Positions 13,551 through 35,044 of a stretch of 64,000 bases of DNA are shown here, in pieces. The stretch's first letter is position 1, and each line of letters opens with the position of its first letter. Below the pieces are notes generated by a model. It worked only from the letters and a program-made list of their open reading frames with translations, searched no databases and was not told the DNA's origin. A program made the translations under genes and the position numbers. This stretch comes from a virus (lineage: Duplodnaviria > Heunggongvirae > Uroviricota > Caudoviricetes): the IMG/VR virus record IMGVR_UViG_3300012359_000001, positions 38,417 through 102,416 of that record; one strand, 5' to 3'.

Positions 13551-14155
13551 AGTGAGCGGGTTGTGTGTTGTGGTACAGGGGTGTCGATTGCGCGTGCAAT
13601 ACGTCCGAACTTTTGAAACTCTTGTATGAACTTGTGTTCGTGAGGTCCGAGATAGACAATAGCAAGAGGGTACCCAAAGTGTTGAGTAGTGCCATCCGGT
13701 CGATCAAACTTTATGTAACCACGATGGAAACATATAGGGTAGTCATAGAGAGGCTGAAACCATACGCAAGAAGAATTGCCGCCGCAAAGAAGAATTGCTT
13801 GACTTGTACGTCCCTCAACATATTCATGTAAAAGCTTCTGTGTGAATACCTCTTGAAACCCATATGTAGACCCTAAAAGTTCTGGGCGTATACGCCCATA
13901 GGGGGGATTGAGCCACACGTTACCCTTCCATTCCTTACCTAACCCATCATCCTCTTTCGTGTAATAGCGTGCCGCCTTGACCGTTCTATTGGCAAGTTCA
14001 CAGGAGGCAGGGTCTAAATCTATCGAACCCATAACACGCCTTGCGGCATCAACATATGGAGCAGGAGTAAACCACTCATTATCTTTGCTTGCTTGCGCTG
14101 GTAGAGACATGACATCAAACAGTGTTGCCATATCACTCTCTCGAACTATCTGCAT
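13532..14155 (-). CDS. dam: DNA N6-adenine methyltransferase (phage Dam family)
   Basis: WFTPAPYVDAARRVMGSIDLDPAS plus NVWLNPPYG (motif IV NPPY). Confidence 0.75.
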   Translation of the reverse strand: MQIVRESDMATLFDVMSLPAQASKDNEWFTPAPYVDAARRVMGSIDLDPASCELANRTVKAARYYTKEDDGLGKEWKGNVWLNPPYGRIRPELLGSTYGFQEVFTQKLLHEYVEGRTSQAILLCGGNSSCVWFQPLYDYPICFHRGYIKFDRPDGTTQHFGYPLAIVYLGPHEHKFIQEFQKFGRIARAIDTPVPQHTTRSLWEVEA

Positions 14156-17584: not shown

Positions 17585-18895
17585 CTCCGTTCAGGAAGCC
17601 CTACGGCTTCAGCCAAGGGAGGAATGAACGGCTTCCGCAGAAGCATTATTGCGTATTGACGATATCCCTCTAAGTGTGCTATAATACTGACATGAAACAA
17701 ACCATGCTCTTGAAACTGGCACCATCGCCAGAACAACAGAACGCCCTGCTTGAAGTCATGCATGCCTTTAATGATGCGTGTAATATGATCGCGCAAGTGG
17801 CATACGATGAACAACTTGCCAACAAGTTCAAGTTGCAAAAGTTGGTCTATGCCACCGTACGCAAGGACTTCAAGTTGTCGTCTCAGTTGGCAATACGCGC
17901 AATCAGCAAAACGGTGGAGTCCTACAAGCATGATAAGAGCATCAAAGTTTCTTTCCGCCGTGAGGGTGCAATCACCTATGACGAGCGGGTAATGTCCTTC
18001 AAAGGGTTGAATGAAGTCTCCCTGCTCACTCTGCAAGGGCGTGTGTTGGTTCCGTTTCGTATCGGCGGCTATCAGGAGTCTCGACTTGACCAAATCAAGG
18101 GGCAGGCCGATCTTCTCTTGAAGGGAAATACCTTCTATCTTGCAGTCACCCTGGACGTGCCAACTCCTGAACCCTATCAACCGTCTGAGACGTTGGGTGT
18201 TGATCTCGGTATTATCAACCTTGCTACCGCGTCGGATGGTGAGACGTTTAGCGGACAGGCGATTGAGCATACCCGCATACGCATGCTCTCGTTGCGAACA
18301 CGTTTGCAGAAGGTTGGCACGAAGTCCGCAAAGCGCCACCTCAAGAAACTTTCCGGTCATGAGAAACGGTTTCATCGTAACACGAATCATGTGATCTCCA
18401 AACATCTGGTACATAAAGCGAAAGTCAATGGACAAGAACTCGCGATTGAAGACTTAAGGCACATTCGTAAGAATGCAACGGTTCGGAAGTCTCAGCGCAA
18501 TCGACACGCCTCCTGGTCCTTCTGGCAACTGCGCTTCTTCCTCTCCTACAAGGCGGCGCTTGCGGGTGTTCCCTTGCACGTGGTAGACCCGCGTAACACG
18601 TCTCGAACGTGCCATGTGTGCGGACACTGCGAGAAAGCGAACCGCAAGAGTCAAGCCCTGTTCCTCTGTAAACAGTGCGGCATGTCGATGAACGCTGACA
18701 TCAACGCCGCAATAAACATATCTAGGGCTGAAGTCATGCAGCCTATGGCATCGGGACGCGCCCAGGTGCAAGCCGTTGGGTTTTAACTCAGGCGGTCATG
18801 ACTCTTGCGCTCCCTCTCCATACCGTTCAGGAAATTTACCCTTTGCCGTCTCTCTCTGGGGATAATCTGAAATATTCCCTATCAGTGGAGCAGAG
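17585..18895 (+). mobile_element. IS200/IS605-family element carrying only tnpB (IS1341-like). Boundaries approximate.
   Basis: Subterminal hairpins at 17600-17650 (GAAGCC..GGCTTC; GCTTCcgcaGAAGC). tnpB at 17692-18786. The motif CCGTTCAGGAA is repeated near both ends (about 17590 and 18832). Confidence 0.55.
17692..18786 (+). CDS. tnpB: TnpB (IS605 OrfB) RuvC-like RNA-guided nuclease family
   Basis: RuvC-I LGVDLGI, RuvC-II AIEDL, zinc finger CHVCGHC...CKQCG, and RuvC-III NADINAAINI. TATAAT sits 12 nt upstream of the ATG. Confidence 0.85.
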   Translation: MKQTMLLKLAPSPEQQNALLEVMHAFNDACNMIAQVAYDEQLANKFKLQKLVYATVRKDFKLSSQLAIRAISKTVESYKHDKSIKVSFRREGAITYDERVMSFKGLNEVSLLTLQGRVLVPFRIGGYQESRLDQIKGQADLLLKGNTFYLAVTLDVPTPEPYQPSETLGVDLGIINLATASDGETFSGQAIEHTRIRMLSLRTRLQKVGTKSAKRHLKKLSGHEKRFHRNTNHVISKHLVHKAKVNGQELAIEDLRHIRKNATVRKSQRNRHASWSFWQLRFFLSYKAALAGVPLHVVDPRNTSRTCHVCGHCEKANRKSQALFLCKQCGMSMNADINAAINISRAEVMQPMASGRAQVQAVGF

Positions 18896-21396: not shown

Positions 21397-21768
21397 TTAT
21401 TCCTTTGTACTGTCAGGAAAAAATGAGAGGTCTAATGCACATTCCCCATGTCCGATTGAGATGGTATAGGCGATTCTCCCATACCTTCTGTGCGTAGGTT
21501 CACCGATTTGTCTGATTGCATACCCGTCAGTTATTTCTCTGATAACATCCTCTGCTGGTGAGAGGGTTTCAGACCAGGGGATAGCGATGAGATCAAAGTC
21601 TTTTGCAAGGCTCCCATGAACAGCAAGTGCGTACCCATGCCTTTGAAATATCTTTGCCAGTTCAGGGTACAGCGCGGCGGCATACACGGGCGCATAGTTC
21701 GGCTTAATCTGCTCAGCCTCTTTCATCTCATCATTCGTCTCCATAGCCATGTGACGACGCCCAGGCAA
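21397..21768 (-). CDS. Hypothetical protein
   Basis: 123 aa. Overlaps the terL start by 38 nt. Confidence 0.35.
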   Translation of the reverse strand: MPGRRHMAMETNDEMKEAEQIKPNYAPVYAAALYPELAKIFQRHGYALAVHGSLAKDFDLIAIPWSETLSPAEDVIREITDGYAIRQIGEPTHRRYGRIAYTISIGHGECALDLSFFPDSTKE

Positions 21769-23110
21769 ACGGGTCTATCCGTTCAATCTCTGCAATCGTT
21801 GGTATCAGTACGGTTGTTGAGGTGACTTCTTCACCTCTCAATGGGACATTAGGACAAAACTTGTACGCGCATAAGTAGCGTTCACAATCTTTTGCATGAT
21901 CAAACTTCTTCACTGGTGCTTCATTCACTTTTTTACCATTAGAGGTATCCCAGATGTAATTCTCAAATTCAGCTTCAGAGCAAATAGGCAAACTTTGTTT
22001 CTGTAGCACCGGATCGACTTCTACTAGACTATCCCGTAAGAAGTACATGCCTGCTCGTCCGTTGGCATTCGGGCGTAATCTTGCTTGCATTTCTTGTATA
22101 CCCACTGACACCGCTTTGTTTGCAGCCAGGGTGCTATATCCAGTATAGCGTTCAAGCGTAGCGCGGTCTTCAGCATTATGATCGCAAATAATTGCAGATG
22201 GAGGTGGTTCACCCTGTGTTATCTGCATGATCAGTTTTGCGTGGTCTTCTACTAGTGTACCGGTCTTATAAATCTCATGGTAGCGGTACAGTTCGTCGTC
22301 GGGTGACTCGGCCCAGGCTTGCCATACAAACGGGTTGCGAAAGCCAAAGTCTACCACCCAATAACGCGGCCAATCGGCAGGGATATCAAAACGGTTGACA
22401 ATGTGCAGAGCAGGGTTCCATTCCTCCTCATACACCATACCCTCAGAGCTGGCCCAGATACCTTTACGCAACCGTAAGTACAGCACCCCTGATAACGCGT
22501 CTAACGTGGCAAGGTCTTCAGCAGTGCAGGCAGGGTTATCTTCATGCTTGCTATCAAGGAGCAACGTCTTACCCGCGTCACAGCGTTGTTTGAGCCAATG
22601 GTTAGCAGGACCAGGGTTACAGTCTCCAAGCAATTGCTGGTAGGGCATGACGTGATTACGTAGTCGTGATGTGAGGCTTTCCCAATCCACTTGATCCAGT
22701 TCTATCGCCTCTTGCGGATAGATAAAATCCCACTCTGATGACATGATCTTTTGTGGATCATCTAACCCGCCCACGGCTATGATACTCCCGTTGGGATACT
22801 CATATTGCTGATCAGTCACATTGAAGCGTATCAGGCTGCCGAGCCAGCCTTGCGGTAATACCTTCGTCTCATACGTCACCATAGCGGTTTGTGTGAGACT
22901 TTTGCGCGTTTTACGTACCATCAAGCCGCGCATACCCTTATACTTGTCAGCACAGTAATGCAGCTTTTCTATGGCACACCTAGATTTTCCAGTATTTGCC
23001 GCTCCGCACAAAAGCAACTCCCTACGAGCTGAGCGCCATGCTTTAAGAGCACCGCCGAAGGGTTGATACGGGCGCTTCTCTTTGACGTAGGAAGAGGCAA
23101 GAGTGATCAC
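21731..23110 (-). CDS. terL: Terminase large subunit
   Basis: Walker A-like LLCGAANTGKS near the N-terminus. 459 aa with a C-terminal nuclease-like region. The small subunit gene lies immediately upstream. Confidence 0.85.
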   Translation of the reverse strand: MITLASSYVKEKRPYQPFGGALKAWRSARRELLLCGAANTGKSRCAIEKLHYCADKYKGMRGLMVRKTRKSLTQTAMVTYETKVLPQGWLGSLIRFNVTDQQYEYPNGSIIAVGGLDDPQKIMSSEWDFIYPQEAIELDQVDWESLTSRLRNHVMPYQQLLGDCNPGPANHWLKQRCDAGKTLLLDSKHEDNPACTAEDLATLDALSGVLYLRLRKGIWASSEGMVYEEEWNPALHIVNRFDIPADWPRYWVVDFGFRNPFVWQAWAESPDDELYRYHEIYKTGTLVEDHAKLIMQITQGEPPPSAIICDHNAEDRATLERYTGYSTLAANKAVSVGIQEMQARLRPNANGRAGMYFLRDSLVEVDPVLQKQSLPICSEAEFENYIWDTSNGKKVNEAPVKKFDHAKDCERYLCAYKFCPNVPLRGEEVTSTTVLIPTIAEIERIDPFAWASSHGYGDE

Positions 23111-23613
23111 TTCTCAATACCATCCTGAGCAGGGTCAAAGGTGTACTCTTTGGGGAGCGTTTCAACCGTGATATGTTGCCTGTCTCGATATTCACTCATT
23201 CTGGATTTGGCGTGAAAGATCAAAAGAGTGTCGCTTTTCTCTCGATAGGTGAGCGGCTTCCCATCTGCACCATACACCAGTTTGCCTTGCGCAACCACAA
23301 ACCGTTCCTCTCCAAACATGCCACGCCTGAATATCTCAGCACGTATAGCATCGTCAACATCGGCTTTTGCAAGGGCGTACTTCATGTTGAACGCTTCATC
23401 ATGCTCTGCCCACTTGTGAACCGTTGAACGGTCAATGCCAGCAGACATGCAGGCCGCTCGTACATTGCCGTTGGAGGCAAACGCTTTCAAGAATTTCTCT
23501 TGTGTCTCCGCAACTTCTTCTTTGGTGAGTCTTACCCCTTTGCGGCGTACTGATGTACGTACATGGCTACGTGCGTTTTTTGTGTGTGTTGACGTGTTGG
23601 TGTGATCAGACAT
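23107..23613 (-). CDS. terS: Terminase small subunit (HTH)
   Basis: NVRAACMSAGIDRSTVHKWAEHD is an HTH typical of terS. Start set at the ATG at 23613 with a GAGAGGG RBS. Confidence 0.6.
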   Translation of the reverse strand: MSDHTNTSTHTKNARSHVRTSVRRKGVRLTKEEVAETQEKFLKAFASNGNVRAACMSAGIDRSTVHKWAEHDEAFNMKYALAKADVDDAIRAEIFRRGMFGEERFVVAQGKLVYGADGKPLTYREKSDTLLIFHAKSRMSEYRDRQHITVETLPKEYTFDPAQDGIEK

Positions 23614-23675
23614 AAAACTACCCTCTCGTATGCATACTATTGCCAGTATAGACGAGAGGGCAAAGAACAAACAAA

Positions 23676-24104
23676 TTAAAATGAGAATGGATGCTGTATC
23701 TGACGAGGGGCAAACACTATCTCCTCTGGCACCTCGAAGAGTGTTTGCCTCCCTCGATAGGGCACAAATGGTAATGCGAGTGGGTGGGACAGTACCCACC
23801 CGTAGAGGCCGCAAAACCAGGGACTTGCGTTCTCTGTTACAATATCCACCAGATCGACAATTCCAATGATCCCGCCTGTCGGGTGGTGCTCACTCCTGAA
23901 TTGTACAAAGGTTTTTTCATCAATAATCCGCGCTATTTGCTCGTATCCTTCAGGATCAATCGTCTTACTGGCGTGTATCAACAACGGTCCTCGGTAGGGA
24001 GTAGTCCAGGTACGGTTCTCTATATGCTTCCACCCCTTTATGATGACGGAAGCCCACGGCTGACGGACGCTAATACAGCGAATACAGCGAATACGCATAC
24101 ACAC
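23676..24104 (-). CDS. ASCH domain protein
   Basis: ISVRQPWASVIIKGWKHIENRTW...GPLLIHASK matches the ASCH pattern. The N-terminus is encoded by a 9-bp tandem repeat. Confidence 0.55.
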   Translation of the reverse strand: MCMRIRCIRCISVRQPWASVIIKGWKHIENRTWTTPYRGPLLIHASKTIDPEGYEQIARIIDEKTFVQFRSEHHPTGGIIGIVDLVDIVTENASPWFCGLYGWVLSHPLALPFVPYRGRQTLFEVPEEIVFAPRQIQHPFSF

Positions 24105-24179: not shown

Positions 24180-25355
24180 CTAACGGGCAGCGTCCATTTG
24201 CATAACTACCGCCTCAAACCCAGGAACACGGTCAAGCGTGAGAGAGGATGCATGATGTTTCGTTGTCCAGGCACAATAGAGCATCGACGCAGGTGCAACA
24301 CTACACACATCAATCAGGTATTGGTAGTTGTAGATACCTTCCAACTCCTTGCCCTCAGTCGCCGCACTCACCAACACACTCATTGGCTCAACCATCCCAT
24401 CCCGTTTTGCTTTCACGTTGAGCGTTCCGTCATGTGGATACAGCCGAACGATGTTGCTATTGTCTTTCGCAATCGGCGCAATAGCAAGCAACGCAGCCTT
24501 GAGTGATGTACTTTCGACAAGAAGCGATGTCTCAAGATCGTCTGTTTTAGGAATAATCTGCTCGTAGCGCGGATAATTCGCCTCAATTTCACGAATATGG
24601 GAGGTGAGTATTCCGCAAGTGAGTGTCGCAAAAGCAGAGGAGAGAGAAGACAACGTGATCTCCCCTTGTTTGGGCATCCGTTTTACCATCTCAAACAAGG
24701 ATCGGGCAGGGAGTAATAGATCACGATCCCAACTCCCCGCACCTACAAGGGTTTCGCGCATCAAGTGAAGACGATGTTGATCACAGGCTACAAGAGTAAG
24801 TACGTCTTGACGTAAACGGAAGAGTATTCCACTAAAAACAGGGCGGGTATCATCCTCTGCCGCCGCAGGGTAGACTGCGTTCACCATCTGCCGAAAGGTA
24901 GCAACTGGCAGACTCACACACGACTCGGGCAGACGGTTCTCCTCTTTCACGGATGGCTCAAAGGGATACTCATCTGCATCAATCGTGGGAAGTGAGACGG
25001 TCATGTCTGCCCCGCTAATGAGCACACTATCCTCTTGAGCGACAAGCGTAAGCGTGGATTTCTTCAAGGGTTTGATAATATCTAGTAACTCTTTATAGTT
25101 GACAGTGAACACTCCATCGCTCTGTACGTAGGCGGCAAGTTCTACTTTTGAGTAGACTTCCAGGTTGGTCGCGGCAATCGTAAGAAACGGATGACGTGCC
25201 TCGATCTTGACATTTGTAAGAATAGGGAGCGTTGAACGTTTTGCAAGTGCAGATGAGATGCTAACAAGCGCATCTGCCAGCACTTTTTGATCAATCGTAA
25301 AAGTTGTAGGGGATGCGACAGGGAGAACAGTCTCTTTCATCGTAACTGTAGTCAT
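24180..25355 (-). CDS. dnaN: DNA polymerase III beta subunit (sliding clamp)
   Basis: FTIDQKVLADALVSISSALAKRSTLPILTNVKIEA...LTIAATNLEV and an overall three-domain clamp pattern. 391 aa. Confidence 0.85.
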   Translation of the reverse strand: MTTVTMKETVLPVASPTTFTIDQKVLADALVSISSALAKRSTLPILTNVKIEARHPFLTIAATNLEVYSKVELAAYVQSDGVFTVNYKELLDIIKPLKKSTLTLVAQEDSVLISGADMTVSLPTIDADEYPFEPSVKEENRLPESCVSLPVATFRQMVNAVYPAAAEDDTRPVFSGILFRLRQDVLTLVACDQHRLHLMRETLVGAGSWDRDLLLPARSLFEMVKRMPKQGEITLSSLSSAFATLTCGILTSHIREIEANYPRYEQIIPKTDDLETSLLVESTSLKAALLAIAPIAKDNSNIVRLYPHDGTLNVKAKRDGMVEPMSVLVSAATEGKELEGIYNYQYLIDVCSVAPASMLYCAWTTKHHASSLTLDRVPGFEAVVMQMDAAR

Positions 25356-25532: not shown

Positions 25533-25721
25533 ATGAAAACAGGGCGAACCAAAGTCTATGCCGACGCACAGCCATTTGATATAAAAAATCTTTCTGCCGA
25601 TCTGAAGAAGAAGTTTGAGGAAGGGCAAGTTCGATACAAAGAAAGGACAGGGCAAGAAATGACGAGACGGGGATATCTTGAGCATTTGCTCAGAACACAC
25701 CCCGAATTGCAGAAGGACTAA
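25533..25721 (+). CDS. Hypothetical small protein
   Basis: 62 aa with a strong GAGAGGAGAGG RBS, downstream of the plus-strand promoter. Confidence 0.4.
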   Translation: MKTGRTKVYADAQPFDIKNLSADLKKKFEEGQVRYKERTGQEMTRRGYLEHLLRTHPELQKD

Positions 25722-26419
25722 ATTCGTATACGTCCGTGGTCATGCCAAAGGTGCTGTCGCTTCCAAGCGTGATTACGGACTGGTTCACGATACATCCTCC
25801 CTTTGAAAGACACGACGCCCTCACGCGCCTGCTCATCAAAGTAGTAGTCCTCGCTATCCCACGGTGTACGCCCCTCACGCTCAGGTGCCAGCAGTAACTC
25901 ACCTTCCACCAACTTCTGCATACAGGATGACTGTCCGACGCAAAAATGTCCGATTCGACGCTTTCCGTAAACCGCTAATGACTTGAACGCTAGCCATAAC
26001 CCTGCGGCAGTATCCCCAATGTAAAAGGGTAGATAAGGACCATATTCCAGCCAACTTCGGCATTGTGCCAGCATATCAAAGGACACTTCCCCTACTTCAC
26101 TGCGTAGTGACACCCACACACATTGCATTTCATCGGCTAATTGCGCAGGGTCAACGTCCCACTTTTCTAGCGTCTGTGGGCGAAAGTTATCAAGCACGAT
26201 ATCAGGATAATCCAGGGGATGCAGATCAAGAAGCGAGAGGATATTCTTCTCTTCCATCTGCTTACCCGCATTAATCCATTCCCACAACTCATCACCCTGG
26301 CGCAAGCCAAGTATCGGATCTTTGCCAGTATGCCACTTTGTAACTTCGCATCCCTGCTCGGCCAAGATCATGCCAGCGTAGGCAACGCTTACATAATTGC
26401 CCAATTCAAGAACGCGCAT
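25718..26419 (-). CDS. CoA-transferase family III (CaiB/BaiF)-like protein, short form
   Basis: N-terminus MRVLELGNYVSVAYAGMILAEQGCEVTKWHTGKD aligns with the CaiB/BaiF N-terminal fold (kVLD..G..aGP....LA..GA.ViKiE). It is only 233 aa, against about 400 aa for canonical enzymes. Confidence 0.45.
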   Translation of the reverse strand: MRVLELGNYVSVAYAGMILAEQGCEVTKWHTGKDPILGLRQGDELWEWINAGKQMEEKNILSLLDLHPLDYPDIVLDNFRPQTLEKWDVDPAQLADEMQCVWVSLRSEVGEVSFDMLAQCRSWLEYGPYLPFYIGDTAAGLWLAFKSLAVYGKRRIGHFCVGQSSCMQKLVEGELLLAPEREGRTPWDSEDYYFDEQAREGVVSFKGRMYREPVRNHAWKRQHLWHDHGRIRI

Positions 26420-26756
26420 ACTGCAACACCTCCTGTACCTGATTATCAGGAGTACAGTATACGACGGTCACACCACTGAACACTTCTTCCTGACGATAGG
26501 CAATCACAATACACGTATCTCCCACTTCACCAAGACGAGCGCCGCCGCCATTGAGAGTAAACACACCCTCCTCAGATGGCAGGGCATATGTTACCCACCT
26601 GTTGCCATTCGAGAGGTTGACAATATGTACTTGCTCATAGGGATCGATGCCTGCAATCTTAAGCAAAGAGGCATCGATACTCGCCGAGCCATGATACCTC
26701 AAACTTTTATCGGTTACGTACAGATTATGGAGTTTTGCACTTACAAACGTTTTCAC
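26406..26756 (-). CDS. panD: Aspartate 1-decarboxylase (pyruvoyl-dependent)
   Basis: MKTFVSAKLHNLYVTDKSLRYHG|SASID...NGNRWVTYAL...NGGGARLGEVGD aligns along the full length of PanD. The Gly-Ser self-cleavage site and the Lys9, His11, Arg54, Thr57 and Tyr58 equivalents are present. Confidence 0.8.
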   Translation of the reverse strand: MKTFVSAKLHNLYVTDKSLRYHGSASIDASLLKIAGIDPYEQVHIVNLSNGNRWVTYALPSEEGVFTLNGGGARLGEVGDTCIVIAYRQEEVFSGVTVVYCTPDNQVQEVLQYARS

Positions 26757-26915: not shown

Positions 26916-28193
26916 CTACTTGATGGGTGGAGCGTACTCAAAAGTAGCAGTTCCCAGGCGGCGGTACTGTGCTTGCCGCCCTCGCAAAACCGGATCGGCA
27001 GTTTTTGAGCTAGAGAGTGATGCCACATTCGTGTAAGAACCATGATGACTCTTCTGCATATTCAGAGCATCGCGCTTCTTGTCTAAATGGTCGTCTAGGC
27101 AGACTAGACGACCAGAGTTACTGTGATACAACATTTTCTGGTTCTTCTTCCACCTCGACGACTCTGACGCAGGCGATGGACCCGATGCATCCACGCCACA
27201 TTGCTTCCAGCGAGGGCTACGTGAGTAGTATGCAATCATAGCAGGATGGGCAACCGTATTATGGTAGCGATAGCCACGCTCATACAAATACTGGCCGAGC
27301 CAATCATCAAAACGTCCACCTAAACCTAAACCTTGATAATCAGGACGAACGACTAAGCGGTGCCCTTGCTTGATATTTCTGGTTTTCGGATGAGGAAGGT
27401 GCAAATAGGAAGAGAACGCTACGCACTCGCCTCCAATGAAACCAGCAAAGCATTGGGCCGCAGTATGGAGTACTCCACTTAGATAGTGATACTTGCTAAA
27501 CAGTCTCCATGCGGTTTTATCACACTGATAGATGCGGAACTCCAATTCTGGATGTCGTTGAAGTAACCTCCAATTGAAGGTATTAGTATGCGGCTGGTAC
27601 ACCCAATCAGGTTGTAACCAATCAAGCACATCATAATGGCACGTTACCGCGACCAATTGTTTTCCCGATTTGCGCACACTTTTCTGGATGCTGTGCGAAG
27701 CAACCTGCGCTACCTGCCGATCGACGACGCTGGTAAACTCATCAAGGACAATGAGATTCTCTGGTTCTAGTAACGCACGAGCCGCAGTGACACGGAACTG
27801 TTCACCCATGCTGAGTACAGCGTAGGGACGCATCCAGTTAGGAGGAGAACCAAAGCCGACACCGCACAACGATCCGGTGATATCCTTGATCGAAAGTCCT
27901 TTAGGCATTGCATCAACCACACTTTTATCAACGGGCCAGTCATCATAACCGATACGAACACAATCACCATAGAGAGCACGCGCAACCGTTGTTTTGCCAC
28001 TACCAGAGGGTCCAACAATAAGCCCGATGGACCAATCCTTTTGGTTGAGCGGCAAGTCAATATCCCAAGACTCAATAGATCGTTCTGAAATCGGGATATC
28101 GAATAAACTCTCTAATTGTTGTATACGTGCCGTTCGTTGCACGGCACATTCTTTCACGATATGCGCTTGCATTACAGTACCAGTGCCCGACAT
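26916..28193 (-). CDS. ABC-type ATPase nucleotide-binding domain fused to a GNAT-like acyltransferase domain
   Basis: Walker A GPSGSGKTT, signature-like LSMGEQ, Walker B LIVLDEFTSVVD, H-loop VTCHYD. C-terminal HRLVVRPDYQGLGLGGRF resembles GNAT motif A. Confidence 0.55.
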   Translation of the reverse strand: MSGTGTVMQAHIVKECAVQRTARIQQLESLFDIPISERSIESWDIDLPLNQKDWSIGLIVGPSGSGKTTVARALYGDCVRIGYDDWPVDKSVVDAMPKGLSIKDITGSLCGVGFGSPPNWMRPYAVLSMGEQFRVTAARALLEPENLIVLDEFTSVVDRQVAQVASHSIQKSVRKSGKQLVAVTCHYDVLDWLQPDWVYQPHTNTFNWRLLQRHPELEFRIYQCDKTAWRLFSKYHYLSGVLHTAAQCFAGFIGGECVAFSSYLHLPHPKTRNIKQGHRLVVRPDYQGLGLGGRFDDWLGQYLYERGYRYHNTVAHPAMIAYYSRSPRWKQCGVDASGPSPASESSRWKKNQKMLYHSNSGRLVCLDDHLDKKRDALNMQKSHHGSYTNVASLSSSKTADPVLRGRQAQYRRLGTATFEYAPPIK

Positions 28194-28783
28194 GTAATCC
28201 CCTCTCCCTGAAAGCGATCTAAGAGCACCAATTGCTCTTGCTCATTCTGGCAATCAATGATAATACCCCATCGCTCGGCAACGTCTGTTTGTTCAGCATT
28301 CCCCTCCTCTGGTAACTTGTCAGCATTTCTCCCTATCACCTCATCACCCAAACCCTCCAACATTTGCCGCAATGTCTCATCATCGCTACCAAGTGTCACC
28401 AGATCGTACCCTGCGTTTTGTTGTTCGGTAAGCAATTCTGCTAAAAGCGCATCATCGTCTACAGCATCCGCACTCAGGAGGTTATCGGCTACAATATAGG
28501 CATTGCATTCTAAATCAGAAAATGTTGGAGGCAGGATCGTTGCGTGAAGTTGGCTCATTTTGAGTTGTTGCGCCGCTTCGACCACACCATGACCTGCAAG
28601 GATCGTGTATGACCCATTCCCCTCATCCCTGCACACAATATCGCGCATCTGCCCGAAGCGTTCAAGACTCATCTTGATTTTATGTACTTGTTCGGGTGGA
28701 TGCGAACGGAAGTTCCGCTCAGATGGGTAGAGGGCAGCAACGGACACCTGATAATGCTCTTTGACAATCTCTTGCTCGATCAT
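28172..28783 (-). CDS. ParB-like nuclease domain protein
   Basis: LYPSERNFRSHPPEQVHKIKMSLERFGQMRDIVCR...YTILAGHGVVEAAQQL is a ParB/Srx fold pattern. Confidence 0.55.
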   Translation of the reverse strand: MIEQEIVKEHYQVSVAALYPSERNFRSHPPEQVHKIKMSLERFGQMRDIVCRDEGNGSYTILAGHGVVEAAQQLKMSQLHATILPPTFSDLECNAYIVADNLLSADAVDDDALLAELLTEQQNAGYDLVTLGSDDETLRQMLEGLGDEVIGRNADKLPEEGNAEQTDVAERWGIIIDCQNEQEQLVLLDRFQGEGITCRALVL

Positions 28784-28786
28784 ACC

Positions 28787-29005
28787 CTACTCCTGCTTTG
28801 CTGGTTCCTCTGTCGCTGGTTGCTGTTCTTCATCTCCCACAACACGCTTCACTTGTCTGCGTAATGTCTCAAAATGCGGCATGATCTGTTTTGCCTCTTG
28901 ATGCGCGTACTCTCCCATACCTGCAAACATATTGTGTGCCTCACGATAGAGGATATCTAATCGTGCATGCAATCGTTTCAATTGTTGTTTTAACTCTTCA
29001 TTCAT
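28787..29005 (-). CDS. Hypothetical protein
   Basis: 72-aa ORF, predicted coiled. Confidence 0.3.
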   Translation of the reverse strand: MNEELKQQLKRLHARLDILYREAHNMFAGMGEYAHQEAKQIMPHFETLRRQVKRVVGDEEQQPATEEPAKQE

Positions 29006-29358
29006 ACTGTATCCTGTCGTGTTGCCCGTAACTCTACAAGTAACGCTTTGATATCACATATTTCTTTCTCTGCTAGTCGGTTCACCATTGCATCATGCTC
29101 CACCGTACACCTGTCTCGCTCAGCCTGCTTATTCTCTGACATCAGGACAAAAATACTTAGGAATATCGCCTCAAGACTTACGGATAAGGTCAAGAACGAG
29201 AACGGGTACGCATCGAACCGCCAGAGTGTGAATGTGTTCAACACAATCCAGAAGAGGAACACAAAGAAATTAATTGCTAGAAATGCAATCGATCCACAAA
29301 AGACAGCAATCCATTCAGCAATCCGCTCACTCTTACTCACCTCCGGTGCCTTAATCAT
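29002..29358 (-). CDS. DUF1003-like membrane protein
   Basis: Two TM segments and ...FDAYPFSFLTLSVSLEAIFLSIFVLMSENKQAERDR match the DUF1003 pattern. Confidence 0.45.
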   Translation of the reverse strand: MIKAPEVSKSERIAEWIAVFCGSIAFLAINFFVFLFWIVLNTFTLWRFDAYPFSFLTLSVSLEAIFLSIFVLMSENKQAERDRCTVEHDAMVNRLAEKEICDIKALLVELRATRQDTV

Positions 29359-30144: not shown

Positions 30145-30615
30145 TCATGGGCAAGCTGTAGGGAAATACCTGCTTTTTTTTGCAAGTCGCTCAGGCGTAA
30201 TCTCTGGGTAAAGTTTCATGATGACAGAGACTCTACTTCCTAATTCACCTTTTATTAATGGTGAGCTATTTTTAGCCTGCCCTGTTTTTGATTTGCTTTC
30301 AAAAATGGACTGAAAATCTTTGTAAGTGAAAGACTTTGCAACATCCAGATTGAATAGACGCACCCCCAAGGAGAGGTAGTAGCGTATCCAATATTGCTCT
30401 CTTCCTTTAGCTTTCTCTATTGTTTCCACTTGCTCAAGAGTACGCATGATAAGCATGAAGCTTTCACTCTTTAGTTCCTGTATCCACTCATTCTTGTCGA
30501 TATTATTCCCGCTACACTGCACATGCTGAGAGAAGCGTTTATACACATCATCAGTAATGCCAACATAGCGTACAACATCGTTGCGAGGATCGATCAGGAC
30601 GTAAACAGCAATCAT
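30145..30615 (-). CDS. GIY-YIG homing endonuclease
   Basis: VYVLIDPRNDVVRYVGITDDVYKRFSQH is the GIY-YIG motif. Confidence 0.75.
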   Translation of the reverse strand: MIAVYVLIDPRNDVVRYVGITDDVYKRFSQHVQCSGNNIDKNEWIQELKSESFMLIMRTLEQVETIEKAKGREQYWIRYYLSLGVRLFNLDVAKSFTYKDFQSIFESKSKTGQAKNSSPLIKGELGSRVSVIMKLYPEITPERLAKKSRYFPTACP

Positions 30616-30927: not shown

Positions 30928-31998
30928 TTACGCCCTCCGCAATGCGCGGCGCTGTCCGATCTGGTCTGCAAGAACGGCATACCCGCGAGCATTCGCTTTC
31001 TCAGGATCGGCTATCTGCACAGCGTTCTTGATGATTTTTTGTAGCGATGAATGGAAGTAGTACGCGCCGCCGCCGCAATGCAGCACTGATTTAAAGCTAG
31101 AAGCTACTTTGCCGCTCTGGTTACTCCACACACTAGAGATTTTTGCATTCTTCTCATCACCAGTTTCCTTGATAGCGGCTTTGACCCACTGCTGCAAATC
31201 TATCCCTGAAACTTGTATTCCATCAGCATACAGTTCTGGATAGGCACCAATATTGATACTTGCACGAAGGACAGCCTGCATTTCTGGCTCTGAGAGTTCA
31301 CGCCCGTATTTCGCCTCAAACTTTGTGCTCAACCGATAGAGGGCATTATTGACGCCGATCTCGAAACTATCGCACTGCTCAGTATGTGCCTTGTGTCCAT
31401 CAAAGCGAAGCATGTTGGTCGTGAGCGATCCGCTATCAACTATTCCTATCGTACTGGTCTTATCAAAACCGTGATAGATAGCAGCTCCCGCGCCCTCCAT
31501 GAACACCTTGACCGTCTCGACGCTGATCGCCATATCACGCCCATTGAACTGATAGCGATACACGCCGGTTAACTCTTCAACGATCTTGCTAGACTGTTCC
31601 TGGTAAGCACGCAAAGGAACGCCCATAACCAGATTGATGGAGAACTCCTGTATCCCAGGCCATATCTGCGCGGCAGCCAGCGAAGCAAAGCACATGATAG
31701 AAACCTGAGTACGTTTGTTGTGATAGCGGTGCTTGTCTTTAAAATCTGAAGTTGGGTTAAGTCCCTGCTCAGCAAGATCAGACAAAAAGTACACTGATCC
31801 GTCATATTCCACCATCAACTCGTTAGGATTGATGGTTTCACCGAGTCCACTGCCAGATTTCAGGGATTGATACTTCTTTAAGTTCCCTTCCGAGATGAGG
31901 CTTGACGCGTCGAACTCCAATAATCTGCCAGTATCCGTCATAACAGCGATATTTGTACGCTGATTGCCCCTGTCGAAGCCTAAATTCAATGTTTTCAT
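30928..31998 (-). CDS. parM: Actin-like ATPase, ParM/StbA family
   Basis: Phosphate-1 LGFDRGNQRTNIAV, phosphate-2 IVDSGSLTTN, adenosine HCGGGAY. Confidence 0.7.
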   Translation of the reverse strand: MKTLNLGFDRGNQRTNIAVMTDTGRLLEFDASSLISEGNLKKYQSLKSGSGLGETINPNELMVEYDGSVYFLSDLAEQGLNPTSDFKDKHRYHNKRTQVSIMCFASLAAAQIWPGIQEFSINLVMGVPLRAYQEQSSKIVEELTGVYRYQFNGRDMAISVETVKVFMEGAGAAIYHGFDKTSTIGIVDSGSLTTNMLRFDGHKAHTEQCDSFEIGVNNALYRLSTKFEAKYGRELSEPEMQAVLRASINIGAYPELYADGIQVSGIDLQQWVKAAIKETGDEKNAKISSVWSNQSGKVASSFKSVLHCGGGAYYFHSSLQKIIKNAVQIADPEKANARGYAVLADQIGQRRALRRA

Positions 31999-32634: not shown

Positions 32635-33204
32635 TTACGCTCTTCTCTTGAGTCCACATTGCTCTAGAACATAGGCGGCGTGGCGACGATAGCGGCTATT
32701 GGTGATACCCATTTTCGCCAGGGCATCATTCACATTGCCAACTTTCCGGTACCAATATTGCAGGTCATCATGTAAATTTTCTGGTAAAAACTTGTCATCT
32801 CCTCTAGGGATATACCCATCACGAGAAGAGTCGGGTCTATTTTTCACTTCCAGTGCTGCAACGGCTTGAATGGCTATTTGACGAGAAGCCTGCACTTGCA
32901 ACTTTTTAATCTCTTTGAGTGCTAATCTATGGGTAGCATTTGTAAGAGGTTCACTTAACGTCTCAAAATGTTTAATCCAATAAGCCTCTCGCTCAAGGGA
33001 AAATTGATAGTTTCCAACTTGTTCCAGTGTCTCCATAATGACCATGCGATTGAGCGCACGCAGTTCAAAAATCCAGGCATTCTTTACAAAACTGCTGCCC
33101 TCTCCGTTAATATGCTGAGTAAATCGCTGGTAGACATCAGTTGTTTGACCGACATAGTGAACGGTGTAGTCTCGCGGATCTACCAGCGCGTAAATGGTAT
33201 ACAT
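32635..33204 (-). CDS. GIY-YIG homing endonuclease (second copy)
   Basis: IYALVDPRDYTVHYVGQTTDVYQRFTQH. The C-terminal module ...SRYRRHAAYVLEQCGLKRRA is shared with the upstream ATPase. Confidence 0.75.
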   Translation of the reverse strand: MYTIYALVDPRDYTVHYVGQTTDVYQRFTQHINGEGSSFVKNAWIFELRALNRMVIMETLEQVGNYQFSLEREAYWIKHFETLSEPLTNATHRLALKEIKKLQVQASRQIAIQAVAALEVKNRPDSSRDGYIPRGDDKFLPENLHDDLQYWYRKVGNVNDALAKMGITNSRYRRHAAYVLEQCGLKRRA

Positions 33205-33205
33205 G

Positions 33206-35044
33206 TTATGCGTCCTTCTTCTTTAATCCCAACTCTGCAATCACGACTCTTGCATGCTGTCGATAACGGCTATCGGCTTGACAAAACTTCAGGCTTTTAT
33301 CGATGTTGCCAGTCATTTCATACCCTTTTGCGAAGAGTGCAATCTGTGTTTGGTTGAGTTGTGGCTGTGCGTCTGAGTGCGTCGTATGCGCTGGCTTCTC
33401 ATCTGGACGCACAGGACGTTGTACCGACGCACTGACTATTTCAGCTAAAATGAGACGATAATCAGCCTCAGAGATGCTGGTCAAGGCTAGAATGTCACTA
33501 TCAAGAAAACCAGCTTCACGCATTTTACGTATCGCTTCTACCTTGCCCATTGCACTGACAGAAGGCTCTAATCGCTGTACCGGTTGCGCAGAACGTTTTG
33601 TCAAGCAAGGGTTGCGTAACCGCTCAATCCCTGGTGTCTCGCTATAATCCTTTGACTCCCGCTTATCAAACTGAACCACCATTGGCTGTAAGGTGAAACC
33701 GAACACAACCGCTCTCCCAGGTGAGAGCATATTGATCTCCTCACGTGTAGCAACCTTTGCGTCAATTTCCTTCTCGCAGGCATCCAGGTCGTTTCGTTCA
33801 ACGTGCCGCGCAAAGATACGTATCTGGCAACTCTTGATCGCCCACTTGGCAATATAGGTCAAACTCTGTGTTGCAAAACCTACGGTATAGCCTGCTGATC
33901 GTCCATTGCTCACCAGCGTAAAGTACGAGTTGTTCAGTTCGTTGAGAAGTGGTTTATTCTCTCTGGCTTCAGGTGGAAGCAAGTCGATCTGTTGCGGCAG
34001 GTAGAGTTGCGCTTCATCTAGCAAGAGCCAGCAAGGGAGTAGCGTGCTGCCAGGAGGAAGCCCGTTCGCCATATCTAACTTGCGTTGCCTGATTGCATAG
34101 CGCATAAGCGACTTCCCAACTGCCGCTACAATTTCAGCCTTTGGCAACCACTTATCATCAGGGCCACCGTAGGAGGGAAGATTGACAATGGCAACACAAC
34201 GCTCCTCCATGACCATCCAGACAAACTCATCGACATTTTTGAGAGTCAGTTCAAAGAATTTGGGTACTCCTGCCATTTCAGCAGAGCCAGCATGGATGCC
34301 ATCAATAAAAGGCAAATCCAGAATAGGCGGGTATTCGCCCTTATGGTCAAGCACAATGATGGGAGCGCCACATTTGCCGCCTTGCTCAATAATGCGCCCC
34401 ATGAGTTGTGACTTGCCTGATCCCTGGACAGCACAGGCGACAAACCCTTTGCCGCTAATCTGATTGAAGTGAGGGTCAAACCTCTGTCCAGCTTTTACCA
34501 CTTTCCCCAGGACAATTGTTTCGTCGTGAGGGTAGGAAGGGAATACTGGCTCGTACACATCCTCCTTATCGTCCTCAAGTGCCTGCACAACAACCGGTCG
34601 GTCATCCTTCGGTTTTGCTACACTCTCAACAACTCTCTCATCAAGCGCGTATTCTAGTGGGGGTGTCGTCATCCCAACCAGTCGCATGAGTTTTGCTTTG
34701 ACTGATTGATCTTTGAACAACTCTTCTTCATCTTCAGGGGAAAGTGCCTCAACGACCTTTTCAGCAGTGATCTGTACTTGCTCTATATCCCCGCCAGGGG
34801 TAAGAAATGCCTGCTTGACCATTGAACCGGCATGAACGAGTTCACCAGAAAACAACCCCGCAATGACGGTACCTGCTATCCCGAAAAACGCGACGGTGCC
34901 ATTATGCGCAACCGCGTCAACAAACATAGAACTGGCAAATGCGCTGGTAGTAAGTATCACCCGCCCCTTAGAAACGTTACGCAAGTAAGAAGGGAGCATT
35001 GACTGCCCCCCACGCTTTGGTAGAATTTTCTCATTGTCTGTCAT
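33206..35044 (-). CDS. HerA/FtsK/VirB4-superfamily (DUF87-like) ATPase with an N-terminal hydrophobic region
   Basis: Walker A AVQGSGKSQLMG followed by IIVLDHKGEY (HerA-like). Walker B WLLLDEAQ. C-terminus ...DSRYRQHARVVIAELGLKKKDA. Confidence 0.55.
   Translation of the reverse strand: MTDNEKILPKRGGQSMLPSYLRNVSKGRVILTTSAFASSMFVDAVAHNGTVAFFGIAGTVIAGLFSGELVHAGSMVKQAFLTPGGDIEQVQITAEKVVEALSPEDEEELFKDQSVKAKLMRLVGMTTPPLEYALDERVVESVAKPKDDRPVVVQALEDDKEDVYEPVFPSYPHDETIVLGKVVKAGQRFDPHFNQISGKGFVACAVQGSGKSQLMGRIIEQGGKCGAPIIVLDHKGEYPPILDLPFIDGIHAGSAEMAGVPKFFELTLKNVDEFVWMVMEERCVAIVNLPSYGGPDDKWLPKAEIVAAVGKSLMRYAIRQRKLDMANGLPPGSTLLPCWLLLDEAQLYLPQQIDLLPPEARENKPLLNELNNSYFTLVSNGRSAGYTVGFATQSLTYIAKWAIKSCQIRIFARHVERNDLDACEKEIDAKVATREEINMLSPGRAVVFGFTLQPMVVQFDKRESKDYSETPGIERLRNPCLTKRSAQPVQRLEPSVSAMGKVEAIRKMREAGFLDSDILALTSISEADYRLILAEIVSASVQRPVRPDEKPAHTTHSDAQPQLNQTQIALFAKGYEMTGNIDKSLKFCQADSRYRQHARVVIAELGLKKKDA

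Follow-up and report, generated by a model that had tools for sequence, protein, structure and literature searches.

What does a phage acylate with a protein that joins an ABC-type ATPase to a GNAT acyltransferase? The gene that raises this question lies in a 64,000-nucleotide stretch of a Caudoviricetes genome (the window). Its open reading frame has two candidate start codons (Table 1), and either is possible: there is a strong Shine-Dalgarno sequence (GGAGAGGGG) 6 nt 5' of ATG 28193, and ATG 28172 shares bases with the stop codon of the ParB-like gene upstream (TAATG). A protein identical to the 418-aa product, which starts at the second ATG, is present in a public protein collection (P0001). 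When we searched the phage collection with 20 kb of the window for a near-identical phage, we found no match.

Table 1. Features of the ABC-GNAT locus; residue numbers are counted from the methionine at position 28172.
Feature	Coordinates	Strand	Residues	Details
ABC-ATPase::GNAT fusion gene	26916..28193	(-)		ORF; 425 aa from ATG 28193, 418 aa from ATG 28172
ABC-type ATPase domain	27573..28172	(-)	1-200	Motifs and Foldseek
Walker A, GPSGSGKT	27990-28013	(-)	54-61
Signature, LSMGEQ	27798-27815	(-)	120-125
Walker B and catalytic Glu, LIVLDEF	27735-27755	(-)	140-146
D-loop, SVVD	27720-27731	(-)	148-151	Placed by hand
H-loop, CHYD	27630-27641	(-)	178-181
GNAT acyltransferase core	27198..27560	(-)	~205-325	Domain model, PDB fold matches, Pfam PF00583
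Invariant H229-Y230 in GNAT core	27477-27494	(-)	229-230	Alignment
GNAT motif A, RLVVRPDYQGLGLGG	27315-27359	(-)	272-286	Acyl-CoA pyrophosphate loop
Basic low-confidence linker	26952..27197	(-)	~326-407	pLDDT <50
Conserved C-terminal strand, TATFEYAPP	26925..26951	(-)		Invariant F411 and Y413
ParB/Srx-like partner gene	28172..28783	(-)		203 aa; stop overlaps ABC-GNAT start region
PanD-type pyruvoyl aspartate 1-decarboxylase	26406..26756	(-)		116 aa; Pfam Asp_decarbox 1.5e-28
Half-length class III CoA-transferase-like protein	25718..26419	(-)		233 aa; Pfam CoA_transf_3 7.9e-9
DNA polymerase III beta sliding clamp	24180..25355	(-)		Pfam DNA_pol3_beta; between CoA-transferase and ASCH genes
ASCH (PUA-like) protein	23676..24104	(-)		GKER-type octapeptide GWKHIENR; Pfam ASCH 1.7e-5
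Terminase small subunit	23107-23814	(-)		Pfam Sf6_terminase 26.2 bits, just under 27-bit gathering score
Terminase large subunit	21731-23110	(-)		Pfam Terminase_3

An ABC-type ATPase fused to a GNAT acyltransferase

We found that Walker A, the signature, Walker B with its catalytic glutamate, the D-loop and the H-loop are present in the order of an ABC ATPase, as an earlier note on this DNA had said, and that all key residues of these motifs and of GNAT motif A are invariant in an alignment of 37 sequences. Another SVVD is found at residues 84-87 and is not the D-loop. The Pfam ABC_tran profile matches above its gathering score (E 9e-9). When the whole protein is modelled with AlphaFold (pLDDT 81), the best Foldseek matches are ABC nucleotide-binding domains (MalK, HlyB, MJ0796 and FtsE; E ~1e-8, probability 1.00), and these ordered motifs on an ABC fold place the protein in the ABC ATPase superfamily.

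The likeness in fold and motifs to transporter nucleotide-binding domains, together with homologue records that read 'ABC iron siderophore transporter' or 'ABC transporter ATP-binding protein', could point to the ATP-binding subunit of an ABC transporter; however, the remaining evidence leaves next to no chance of this. As the earlier note had stated, the protein has no membrane domain: we found no membrane segment (the maximum Kyte-Doolittle mean over 19 residues is 1.18) and no permease gene adjoining it in the window or in 164 related loci. None of the NCBIfam transporter models comes near its cut-off (38.8 vs 435 bits, for example), and the protein is fused to a GNAT domain and is encoded in phage genomes beside ParB and terminase genes. 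The Q-loop glutamine is the residue that couples ABC domains to membrane domains, and in the 37-sequence alignment we found no invariant glutamine between Walker A and the signature, a segment of only ~60 residues in which the invariant columns are D87, P90, G106, P111, W113, R115 and P116. With no permease and no membrane segment, we rejected the transporter reading as effectively refuted. We also weighed a DUF1003 membrane protein, encoded two genes upstream (29002-29358), as a possible membrane partner and rejected it, as it is absent in all related loci.

The suggestion that the ABC domain resembles the DNA-clamping ATPases UvrA, RecF and MutS found no support, because the nearest folds are transporter-type and the ABC domain is slightly acidic (median net charge -3 across the family). 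Contact with DNA is more likely to come from the ParB-like partner and from the basic GNAT domain and tail than from the ABC domain.

The segment that follows the ABC domain, which had been noted for its motif-A pattern, is a true GNAT fold. Structure prediction had been proposed as the check on this C-terminal half, and in a separate model of residues 196-418 all of the top 50 PDB matches are GNAT acyltransferases, including RimI, PaiA and SpeG (E 3e-6 to 6e-5, probability 1.00). Pfam Acetyltransf_1 (PF00583) also matches (E 2.1e-5; 25.2 vs a 20.7-bit cut-off), and Q280-G281-x-G283 of motif A (Q/R-x-x-G-x-G/A) is invariant, so that both fold and motif assign the domain to the GNATs. The net charge of the GNAT core is +7 in the window protein, with a family median of +9, and is positive in 161/161 homologues. 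The linker that follows is ~50 aa longer in the window protein than in most homologues of the alignment; the linker carries a net charge of +8 (family median +6, with 24% K/R). After the linker, the AlphaFold model regains confidence and predicts a strand at residues 409-413, which probably completes the GNAT sheet as its last strand. Taken together, these data indicate that the ABC-GNAT protein is a soluble ABC-type ATPase with intact dimerisation and hydrolysis motifs, fused to a GNAT acyl-CoA-dependent transferase.

The ABC-GNAT family and its ParB-like partner

The earlier note had not recognised this architecture as a named family and had called for a database search for the same fusion. 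When we ran this search on the protein collection, we found at least 7,500 homologues and, in a search limited to E<=1e-30, 1,033 clusters at 50% identity. Phages and prophages from many phyla carry the family in large numbers, and the cultured phages that carry it infect Streptococcus, Lactococcus, Gordonia/Rhodococcus, Burkholderia and Aeromonas. It corresponds to PHROG 11143, listed as 'unknown function' (E 5e-95), and had already been predicted to be a DNA-base acylation enzyme: Iyer and Aravind (2021, Viruses, PMC7824862) proposed that a phage ABC-ATPase with a GNAT acylates a DNA base, and that paper cites the same prediction from Iyer, Zhang, Burroughs and Aravind (NAR 2013). The architecture was thus on record before. 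Homologues are routinely mis-annotated as ABC transporters.

In Tenacibaculum phage pT24, gp038/gp037 match the window protein by tblastn with 30.7% identity over 80% coverage (E 8e-44). By this comparison of sequences, the window protein belongs to the predicted phage ABC-GNAT DNA-modification family, of which pT24 is an example. In the pT24-type system, the same two kinds of domain, ABC and GNAT, are fused or adjacent, and are encoded by a phage in a ParB-terminase type locus (PMC4738411). That system has been described by computational prediction, which assigns it no chemistry, and the window locus adds PanD and a mini CoA-transferase to it. We found no experimental work on any ABC-GNAT family member in the literature. 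Searches of the literature, in which the 2013 prediction was covered through the papers that cite it, returned nothing relevant on beta-alanyl-CoA with phage DNA modification, N4-acyl-dC in phages or PanD/CaiB/GNAT.

In 110/137 testable loci, a ParB-like gene of the same orientation immediately precedes ABC-GNAT, and in the window the two genes are translationally coupled. We also found ParB-like::ABC::GNAT triple fusions (P0133, E 6e-17; P0142, E 3e-5), and the length pattern of such a fusion is present in 11 of the top 150 cluster representatives. In the window, the ParB-like protein matches Pfam ParB_N at 1.9e-4 (21.9 bits, under the 26.3 cut-off) and PHROG ParB-like families at 1e-23. It also matches the N-terminus of phage ParB::DNA-methyltransferase fusions (PHROG 498, 6e-24) and of the PADLOC model MTase_II (5e-15). 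PADLOC models gave partial matches only, including one of the ABC region to mad3 (3.5e-12), and no defence system could be assigned. Other ParB folds require the box-II arginine to bind nucleotide. The ParB-like protein of the window lacks this usual arginine (GHGV, not GHxR; V67), whereas 94/131 partners have it; valine is found in only 2/131, and G64 is invariant.

Experiments have shown ParB-like proteins of phages to be activators of a dioxygenase that modifies DNA bases (PMC13229309). In both the 5mYOX phage thymidine dioxygenases (PNAS 2026, PMC13229309) and the ParB::DNA-methyltransferase fusions (PMC12704722), a ParB/Srx-fold protein is encoded beside or fused to an enzyme that modifies DNA bases and that needs it as activator, a pairing similar to that of the ParB-like and ABC-GNAT genes in the window. 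The window differs from them in that the partner is an ABC-GNAT protein rather than a dioxygenase or methyltransferase, and in that its ParB-like protein is without the nucleotide-binding arginine.

PanD, CoA-transferase and ASCH genes of the operon

Most of the functional information is carried by the operon, with its ParB-like, PanD, CoA-transferase and ASCH genes, which was absent from the earlier note. The terminase genes make the region a 'ParB-terminase locus', a concept described previously (PMC4738411), and the gene order that contains them is the same in related loci.

The PanD-type protein shares 33% identity with E. coli PanD by BLASTP (E 3e-21), and residues K9, G24-S25, R54, T57 and Y58 are identical in the alignment; its score is under the NCBIfam equivalog cut-off (79.6 vs 106 bits). 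In PanD, Gly24-Ser25 is the self-cleavage site at which the pyruvoyl group forms. Downstream of it, the CoA-transferase-like protein shares the N-terminal CoA-binding domain with class III CoA-transferases (Frc, CaiB and YfdE). In contrast to these enzymes of ~400 aa, it has ~230 aa and is without the small domain and the C-terminal half, so that it falls short of the full two-domain form, which makes an interlocked dimer; its homologues are mostly 213-241 aa. The Pfam match covers only the first 96 residues (profile positions 4-109 of 366), and PDB profile matches to formyl-CoA transferase, FAR and Rv3272 end near residue 150. An invariant G135-D136-T137 aligns opposite L167-G168-D169 of E. 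coli Frc in a weak hhalign comparison (18% probability, E 0.0013). Asp169 is the catalytic residue of Frc, and CaiB takes omega-ammonium carboxylates, compounds similar in chemistry to beta-alanine. Because of the half length, the Pfam match to the first 96 residues and the 18% alignment at the GDT, the activity of the mini CoA-transferase is uncertain.

To examine how these genes are linked, we searched in reverse from the mini CoA-transferase. It is seen only beside ABC-GNAT (39/39 testable viral loci), and PanD is present in 34/42 loci of this search. From the side of ABC-GNAT, PanD and CoA-transferase genes follow it in the window and in 20/161 alignable related loci. The same four-gene cassette is found in Rhodococcus phage Jace (gp85-88) and in hosts from Actinobacteria, Alphaproteobacteria, Planctomycetes and Acidobacteria. 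Gordonia phages Axumite and Shatter and Streptococcus phage 315.4 have ParB and ABC-GNAT but not the full cassette. The strict two-way linkage between mini CoA-transferase and ABC-GNAT argues for a dedicated donor pathway rather than general metabolism. PanD is on the route of CoA biosynthesis, and it could instead act as an accessory gene for raising CoA production in the host. Within the GNAT domain, residues G270, N305 and Y316 separate PanD-linked proteins from the rest (N305, 100% vs 7%), a separation that is confounded by shared ancestry. These positions sit on beta4, beta5 and alpha4, elements that generally flank the acyl pocket in GNATs.

Of 164 related loci, 57 contain an ASCH gene. 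It usually comes right after ABC-GNAT, and in many cases it starts 20-170 nt past the end of that gene. The ASCH protein of the window scores 25.9 vs 21.2 bits for PF04266 and contains the GxKxxExR octapeptide; its enzymatic activity is putative. Characterised ASCH proteins are N4-acylcytosine amidohydrolases (PMC6972931), and those of the family, including the GKER type, have been described as ac4C erasers that require the octapeptide Lys/Glu dyad for ac4C hydrolysis (bioRxiv 2026.02.27.708502). An ASCH gene is also present in the unrelated Streptococcus phage 315.4.

When we clustered the neighbours in 161 loci, no other donor-making enzyme recurred; besides ParB, ASCH, PanD and CoA-transferase, the recurrent neighbours were packaging and structural genes and HNH endonucleases, with many of the apparent clusters being shadow ORFs of high-GC genomes. 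The DNA polymerase III beta clamp had no matches in related loci, and Pfam searches on the ABC-GNAT neighbours in Aeromonas phage PX29, pT24 and SSU5 gave mostly no matches.

Candidate targets of acyl transfer

We judge the chances to be about even that the ABC-GNAT protein provides the catalysis in a phage module that acylates nucleic acid, is encoded in a ParB-terminase locus and places an acyl group, here probably beta-alanyl, on bases of the phage DNA. ATP-gated delivery of an acyl group to nucleic acid, as the earlier note had proposed, is the interpretation that gene context supports best, because of the ParB-like partner and its fusions, the ASCH neighbour, the ParB-terminase locus and the strongly basic GNAT domain and tail. 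It agrees with the published prediction (PMC7824862); the target itself we infer.

In the proposed module, PanD would convert L-aspartate to beta-alanine, and the mini CoA-transferase would move CoA from a common acyl-CoA onto beta-alanine to give beta-alanyl-CoA. The ParB-like protein would bring ABC-GNAT to phage DNA or activate it there, and ATP binding would produce a closed head-to-tail ABC dimer that gates the GNAT domains. These would then transfer beta-alanyl to the exocyclic amine of a flipped-out base. We favour N4 of cytosine because ASCH proteins bind and hydrolyse N4-acylcytosine; adenine N6, as in phage Mu Mom, would be an alternative acceptor. Acylation would take place around packaging time, the positively charged adduct would shield the DNA from host restriction, and ASCH would act as reader or eraser of the acyl mark. 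For homologues that lack PanD and CoA-transferase, the donor would be a common one, for example acetyl-CoA. The most specific form of this scheme is possible but doubtful: amide-linked beta-alanyl DNA, for example N4-(3-aminopropanoyl)-deoxycytidine, made post-replication by an ABC-GNAT and ParB-fold writer, with PanD and mini CoA-transferase supplying the donor and ASCH as reader or eraser.

Several observations speak against a DNA target. The nearest solved GNAT folds belong to acetyltransferases of proteins and polyamines (RimI, PaiA and SpeG), the window ParB-like protein is without the box-II arginine, there is no significant likeness to Mom or TmcA, and ASCH proteins, as far as characterised, act on RNA and free nucleosides rather than on DNA. 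Acylation of a protein, whether of the host (RNA polymerase, ribosomal or defence proteins), the ParB-like partner or a packaging protein, with the ABC domain as a regulatory or substrate clamp, is rather unlikely. It would fit the nearest structures, which are of enzymes that acetylate the N-alpha group or lysines of proteins (RimI, 5isv; PAT, 4nxy) or polyamines, and the terminase-adjoining site in the case of a packaging protein; phage GNATs that acetylate host proteins are also known, such as Rac of phiKMV-like phages, according to a passage in PMC7824862. However, structural neighbours poorly predict the substrate of a GNAT, and against a protein target stand the obligate pairing or fusion with a ParB-like domain, a type of domain also joined to DNA methyltransferases, the recurrent ASCH neighbour, whose fold binds modified bases, and the uniformly basic GNAT domain and tail. 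A small-molecule target (a nucleotide, defence signal or antibiotic), or PanD and CoA-transferase merely raising host CoA and beta-alanine pools, is very unlikely. Small amines, polyamines and aminoglycosides among them, are substrates of many GNATs, SpeG and AAC are among the fold matches, PanD is a CoA-route enzyme, and 'acr candidate' genes adjoin a homologue in Porphyromonas phages. Against this stand the 39/39 linkage, which argues for a dedicated donor pathway, and the ParB partner or fusion, the ABC dimerisation engine and the basic tail, three features not expected of a small-molecule acetyltransferase.

In TmcA and NAT10, which write ac4C, an ATPase is coupled with a GNAT, and the ABC-GNAT protein might likewise be an RNA or tRNA cytidine N4-acyltransferase that alters tRNAs of the host or the phage, for example as a way past anticodon nucleases, with ASCH as the eraser. 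This is unlikely, although the likeness extends to an NTPase coupled to a GNAT (for nucleobase acylation, proposed in the case of ABC-GNAT), to a product class, N4-acylcytosine, that is what ASCH recognises, and to a weak PDB profile match to NAT10 (E 0.076, at motif A only); the tested ASCH proteins all strip ac4C from tRNA (bioRxiv 2026.02.27.708502). TmcA and NAT10 have a RecD-like helicase module, a tRNA-binding domain and an RNA substrate, whereas the ATPase here is ABC-type, we found no tRNA-binding domain in ABC-GNAT, and a comparison of the GNAT profile with E. coli TmcA by hhalign gives 0.4% probability. The ParB-like partner, its kinship with DNA-methyltransferase fusions and the ParB-terminase locus point to DNA.

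For DNA-base modification, a further comparison is Mom, a phage GNAT that acts on the exocyclic amine of a DNA base (adenine N6) against restriction, as we presume for ABC-GNAT. Both have a basic C-terminal region (Mom: PMC7261163), and in the Mu-like Burkholderia phage phiE255 ABC-GNAT follows the tail-fibre genes, like mom in Mu. Unlike ABC-GNAT, Mom has no ATPase or ParB partner, and it uses acetyl-CoA and iron in a proposed radical route to carbamoylmethyl, not a simple acyl transfer. We found no match to Mom (PF25680) in ABC-GNAT at E<=0.1, and hhalign of the GNAT domain against a 20-sequence Mom profile gave 1.2% probability (E 0.044) over 45 columns only. Among the residues H48, Y49, S114, D139, Y149 and R101 of the Fe/acetyl-CoA site of Mom, only the HY dyad aligns, with H48-Y49 opposite a local HHY(L/S) motif of ABC-GNAT, an alignment without statistical support. 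As neither profile comparison is significant (1.2% and 0.4%), we rejected assignment to the Mom and TmcA families.

The ABC-GNAT architecture and the DNA-base prediction are already published, and the link to a PanD and CoA-transferase donor is what the window appears to add to the prediction as the later papers cite it. This link sharpens a vague 'acyl modification' into a concrete prediction of +71.04 Da on dC or dA, for example in the DNA of phage Jace. To our knowledge, phage Mu Mom is the only GNAT known to modify DNA, by a chemistry that is so far a proposal, and N-acyl bases in DNA are almost unexplored. If the proposal is true, the locus would define a new chemical class of DNA hypermodification, N-acylation of the aminoacyl type, together with the first known pair of writer and eraser for DNA bases with N-acyl groups, and cassettes without PanD and CoA-transferase would write N-acetyl bases. 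There would be consequences for restriction evasion and for sequencing artefacts, and the ABC-GNAT protein would be a new ATP-gated tool for site-directed DNA acylation. ASCH domains would gain a substrate at the level of DNA, and ParB-fold proteins would have a wider role as activators of DNA-modifying enzymes.

ABC-GNAT and its family

We found that the ABC-GNAT protein, in which an ABC-type ATPase domain is fused to a GNAT acyltransferase domain, carries the motifs of both in the order reported in the earlier note, and that an alignment of 37 sequences shows no variation at their key residues. Pfam ABC_tran and Acetyltransf_1 both exceed their curated thresholds, and the AlphaFold model (pLDDT 81) matches ABC nucleotide-binding domains. 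When residues 196-418 were modeled separately, the best 50 PDB matches were all GNAT acyltransferases, confirming the fold proposed for the C-terminal half. Judged by sequence, the ATPase part has all dimerization and hydrolysis motifs and the CoA-binding loop of the GNAT part is intact. No hydrophobic segment was found in the protein, in line with the earlier claim that a membrane domain is absent, and annotation as an ABC transporter was rejected. Among homologues, the GNAT core is basic (median net charge +9, positive in 161/161), as is the tail after it (median +6), and the ABC domain is slightly acidic (median -3). A strong Shine-Dalgarno sequence precedes the first ATG. The second ATG (28172) shares bases with the stop codon of the gene before it (TAATG), and the public protein P0001 is identical from this second ATG (418 aa); translation from either ATG is possible.

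Features of ABC-GNAT and of the surrounding phage genome
Feature	Position	Strand	Detail
Dam-type N6-adenine DNA methyltransferase	13532-14155	-	Pfam PF05869, E 1.4e-11; overlaps portal gene end
TnpB/IS605 OrfB-like transposase	17674-18786	+	PHROG transposase, E 6e-46 and 3e-43
Large terminase		-	Gene 8; after ASCH in gene order
Small terminase		-	Gene 7; after ASCH in gene order
ASCH	24104-23676	-	Gene 6
DNA polymerase III beta sliding clamp	24180-25355	-	Gene 5; complete
CoA-transferase-like	26419-25718	-	Gene 4
PanD	26756-26406	-	Gene 3
ABC-GNAT	26916..28193	-	Gene 2; 425 aa
Walker A	residues 54-61		GPSGSGKT
Signature	residues 120-125		LSMGEQ
Walker B with Glu	residues 140-146		LIVLDEF
D-loop	residues 148-151		SVVD; coordinates computed by hand
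H-loop	residues 178-181		CHYD
GNAT motif A	residues 272-286		RLVVRPDYQGLGLGG
ParB-like	28783-28172	-	Gene 1; directly before ABC-GNAT
DUF1003 membrane protein (small)	29002-29358	-	Pfam E 3.6e-26; two genes upstream of ParB-like
GIY-YIG homing-endonuclease-like	30145-30615	-	Paralogue of 32635-33204
Actin-like ParM/Alp7A	30928-31998
GIY-YIG homing-endonuclease-like	32635-33204	-
HerA/FtsK-like ATPase	33206-35044		Pfam DUF87; PADLOC mad8, E 6e-10
DnaB	45648-46997
O-like initiator	46970-48622
PAPS-reductase-like	48502-49374	-	PHROG 424, E 1.9e-45

The architecture, which the earlier note did not recognize, is a known, if obscure, predicted family. A word-indexed search returned >7,500 homologues, mostly 360-390 aa with both Pfam domains, and when 1.84 billion cluster representatives were searched exhaustively with a profile, 1,033 clusters reached E≤1e-30. 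PHROGs lists it as family 11143, 'unknown function', and homologues are usually annotated 'ABC transporter' or 'hypothetical'. It is present in 85 phage records, from phages of, for example, Gordonia/Rhodococcus, Streptococcus, Lactococcus, Oenococcus, Burkholderia, Aeromonas, Porphyromonas, Leptospira and Tenacibaculum; in Firmicutes phages the two halves are separate adjacent genes. One homologue (P0196, 715 aa) is split by an intein, its residues 63-341 matching the Pfam domains Hint, LAGLIDADG and homing endonuclease, and P0135 and P0251 are also over-long.

Genes around ABC-GNAT

The window is a siphovirus-like phage genome with tape measure, major head protein, protease, portal, terminase, DnaB and O-like initiator genes. 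To define the context of ABC-GNAT, 160 related loci were drawn from collections of viruses and of genomes, and their neighboring genes were scored. Of the 137 loci with enough sequence, 110 have a ParB-like gene in the same orientation at most 1 kb upstream. Among the 150 best cluster representatives, 11 are ~200 aa longer at the N-terminus, and the two that were checked are both ParB-like::ABC::GNAT fusions (P0133, E 6e-17 across the whole ParB-like protein; P0142, E 3e-5). From this pairing and these fusions we conclude that the two proteins work as one unit, and we treat the association as obligate. Proteins like the window ParB-like protein are found fused to DNA methyltransferases in phages (PHROG 498; PADLOC MTase_II). 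At residue 67 it has GHGV where 94/131 partners (72%) have GHxR; the box-II arginine position is valine in 2/131 and threonine in 30/131. Other ParB folds require this arginine to bind nucleotide, so the window copy may be unable to bind NTP. In Salmonella phage SSU5 (1599-4743), two ParB-like genes precede an ABC ATPase whose similarity to the query is confined to the ABC half (~28% identity, E 1e-13) and in which no GNAT could be detected; such phage-plasmids include Klebsiella and E. coli relatives, and theirs may be a related ParB+ABC module that serves another effector.

ASCH genes occur in 57/164 loci, usually just past the 3' end of ABC-GNAT and often convergent, and the genes after the module are typically small and large terminase and portal. 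In most prophage loci (L085-L103 and others; ~+20 to +170 nt after ABC-GNAT), ASCH is convergent with ABC-GNAT, and of 47 downstream copies 43 run on the other strand, which may mean separate regulation, e.g. expression in the lysogen. ASCH is co-directional in the window and in Streptococcus phage 315.4, where it follows the GNAT gene.

Several other window genes were observed. The beta sliding-clamp gene between the CoA-transferase-like and ASCH genes is found at this position in no related locus. The TnpB-like gene lies among the late genes but on the opposite strand, with the terminase region to one side and the portal region to the other, and looks like a mobile-element insertion. The GIY-YIG paralogues flank the ParM/Alp7A gene, with the HerA/FtsK-like gene next, a segregation/translocase cluster that is unusual for a phage. 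The DUF1003 gene is absent from all related loci and so is probably unrelated to the module. The Dam-type gene means that the genome also encodes a conventional DNA methylase. The PAPS-reductase-like gene adjoins replication genes, and since members of its family frequently have links with DNA modification, its product may be a second modification enzyme.

PanD and a half-length CoA-transferase-like protein

PanD (aspartate decarboxylase) and CoA-transferase-like genes occur together beside ABC-GNAT in 17-19/161 loci, the hosts being Actinobacteria, Alphaproteobacteria, Planctomycetes and Acidobacteria, and the closest cultured relative, Rhodococcus phage Jace (54% identity), carries the same four genes, likewise ordered. 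One subgroup of ABC-GNAT loci has a dedicated PanD/CoA-transferase pair. The reverse search is a stronger test of linkage than this forward count: with the CoA-transferase-like protein as query, 42 loci were recovered from viral contigs, with ABC-GNAT in all 39 not cut off upstream and PanD in 34 of 42. Window PanD shares 33% identity with its E. coli counterpart and conserves K9, the G24-S25 self-cleavage site, R54, T57 and Y58. Among class III enzymes, formyl-CoA transferase (E 1.5e-5), FAR and Rv3272 are matched by the CoA-transferase-like protein. Its invariant G135-D136-T137 aligns, at a probability of only 18%, with the E. coli Frc segment holding Asp169, the known catalytic residue. Given this alignment and a length of ~230 aa, which omits the C-terminal half of the family, CoA-transferase activity is no more than plausible.

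GNAT positions G270, N305 and Y316 separate PanD-linked (n=20) from PanD-less (n=83) proteins; N305 occurs in 100% of the former vs 7% of the latter, a comparison uncorrected for shared ancestry. In the model, these positions fall in predicted strands and a helix matching beta4, beta5 and alpha4 of GNATs, which flank the acyl pocket.

Possible acylation of a DNA base

The earlier note proposed ATP-gated delivery of an acyl group to nucleic acid. This agrees with gene context and with Iyer et al. (PMC7824862), who predict that a phage ABC ATPase and GNAT system acylates a DNA base; genes of their example, Tenacibaculum phage pT24, match the window protein (E 8e-44). Literature searches found no experimental study of the family. 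We consider that acylation of a DNA base, as predicted from sequence and context, has an even chance of being correct. Weak points of this reading are that the solved GNAT structures closest in fold acetylate proteins and polyamines, and that the window ParB-like protein has valine at the box-II arginine position. Acylation of protein is unlikely in our judgment, acylation of RNA rather improbable, and a small-molecule or metabolic role of the module more improbable still. Known ASCH substrates are RNA and nucleosides, whereas acylation of a DNA base would place the mark on DNA. Comparison with TmcA gave no similarity. ABC-GNAT had no match to PF25680 (Mom), and hhalign against Mom was not significant (probability 1.2%), although a local HHY motif aligns with Mom H48-Y49. 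In Mu-like Burkholderia phage phiE255 (3510-5242), the gene after ABC-GNAT (gp29) encodes a formyltransferase (Pfam PF00551, E 2.9e-21), and the annotation shows no ParB-like gene; the pair sits after tail-fibre genes, as mom does in Mu.

If ABC-GNAT acylates a DNA base, PanD would make beta-alanine and the CoA-transferase-like protein would make beta-alanyl-CoA, for which CaiB, a class III enzyme handling omega-ammonium carboxylates, is a precedent. Loci without donor genes would presumably use acetyl-CoA. The ParB-like protein would target or activate ABC-GNAT on DNA, ATP-driven ABC dimerization would gate both GNAT domains, and the acyl group would pass to an exocyclic amine of a base. Adenine N6, on which Mom acts, is the alternative to the favored site, N4 of cytosine. 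Phage thymidine dioxygenases are activated by ParB-like proteins in experiments (PMC13229309). The N4 site is favored because YqfB (GKTR)-type and GKER-type ASCH proteins hydrolyze N4-acetylcytosine in nucleosides and tRNA (PMC6972931; bioRxiv 2026.02.27.708502) and the window ASCH carries a GKER-type motif, GWKHIENR. The quantified ParB fusion and ASCH associations, read with the recent ASCH and ParB experiments, appear to be new against the literature consulted, as does the strict link, in both directions, between ABC-GNAT and the pair of PanD and a minimal class III CoA-transferase. Beta-alanyl transfer, the specific prediction to which this link leads, also appears new, and the resulting mark, bearing a pendant primary amine, would be akin to other cationic hypermodifications of phages.
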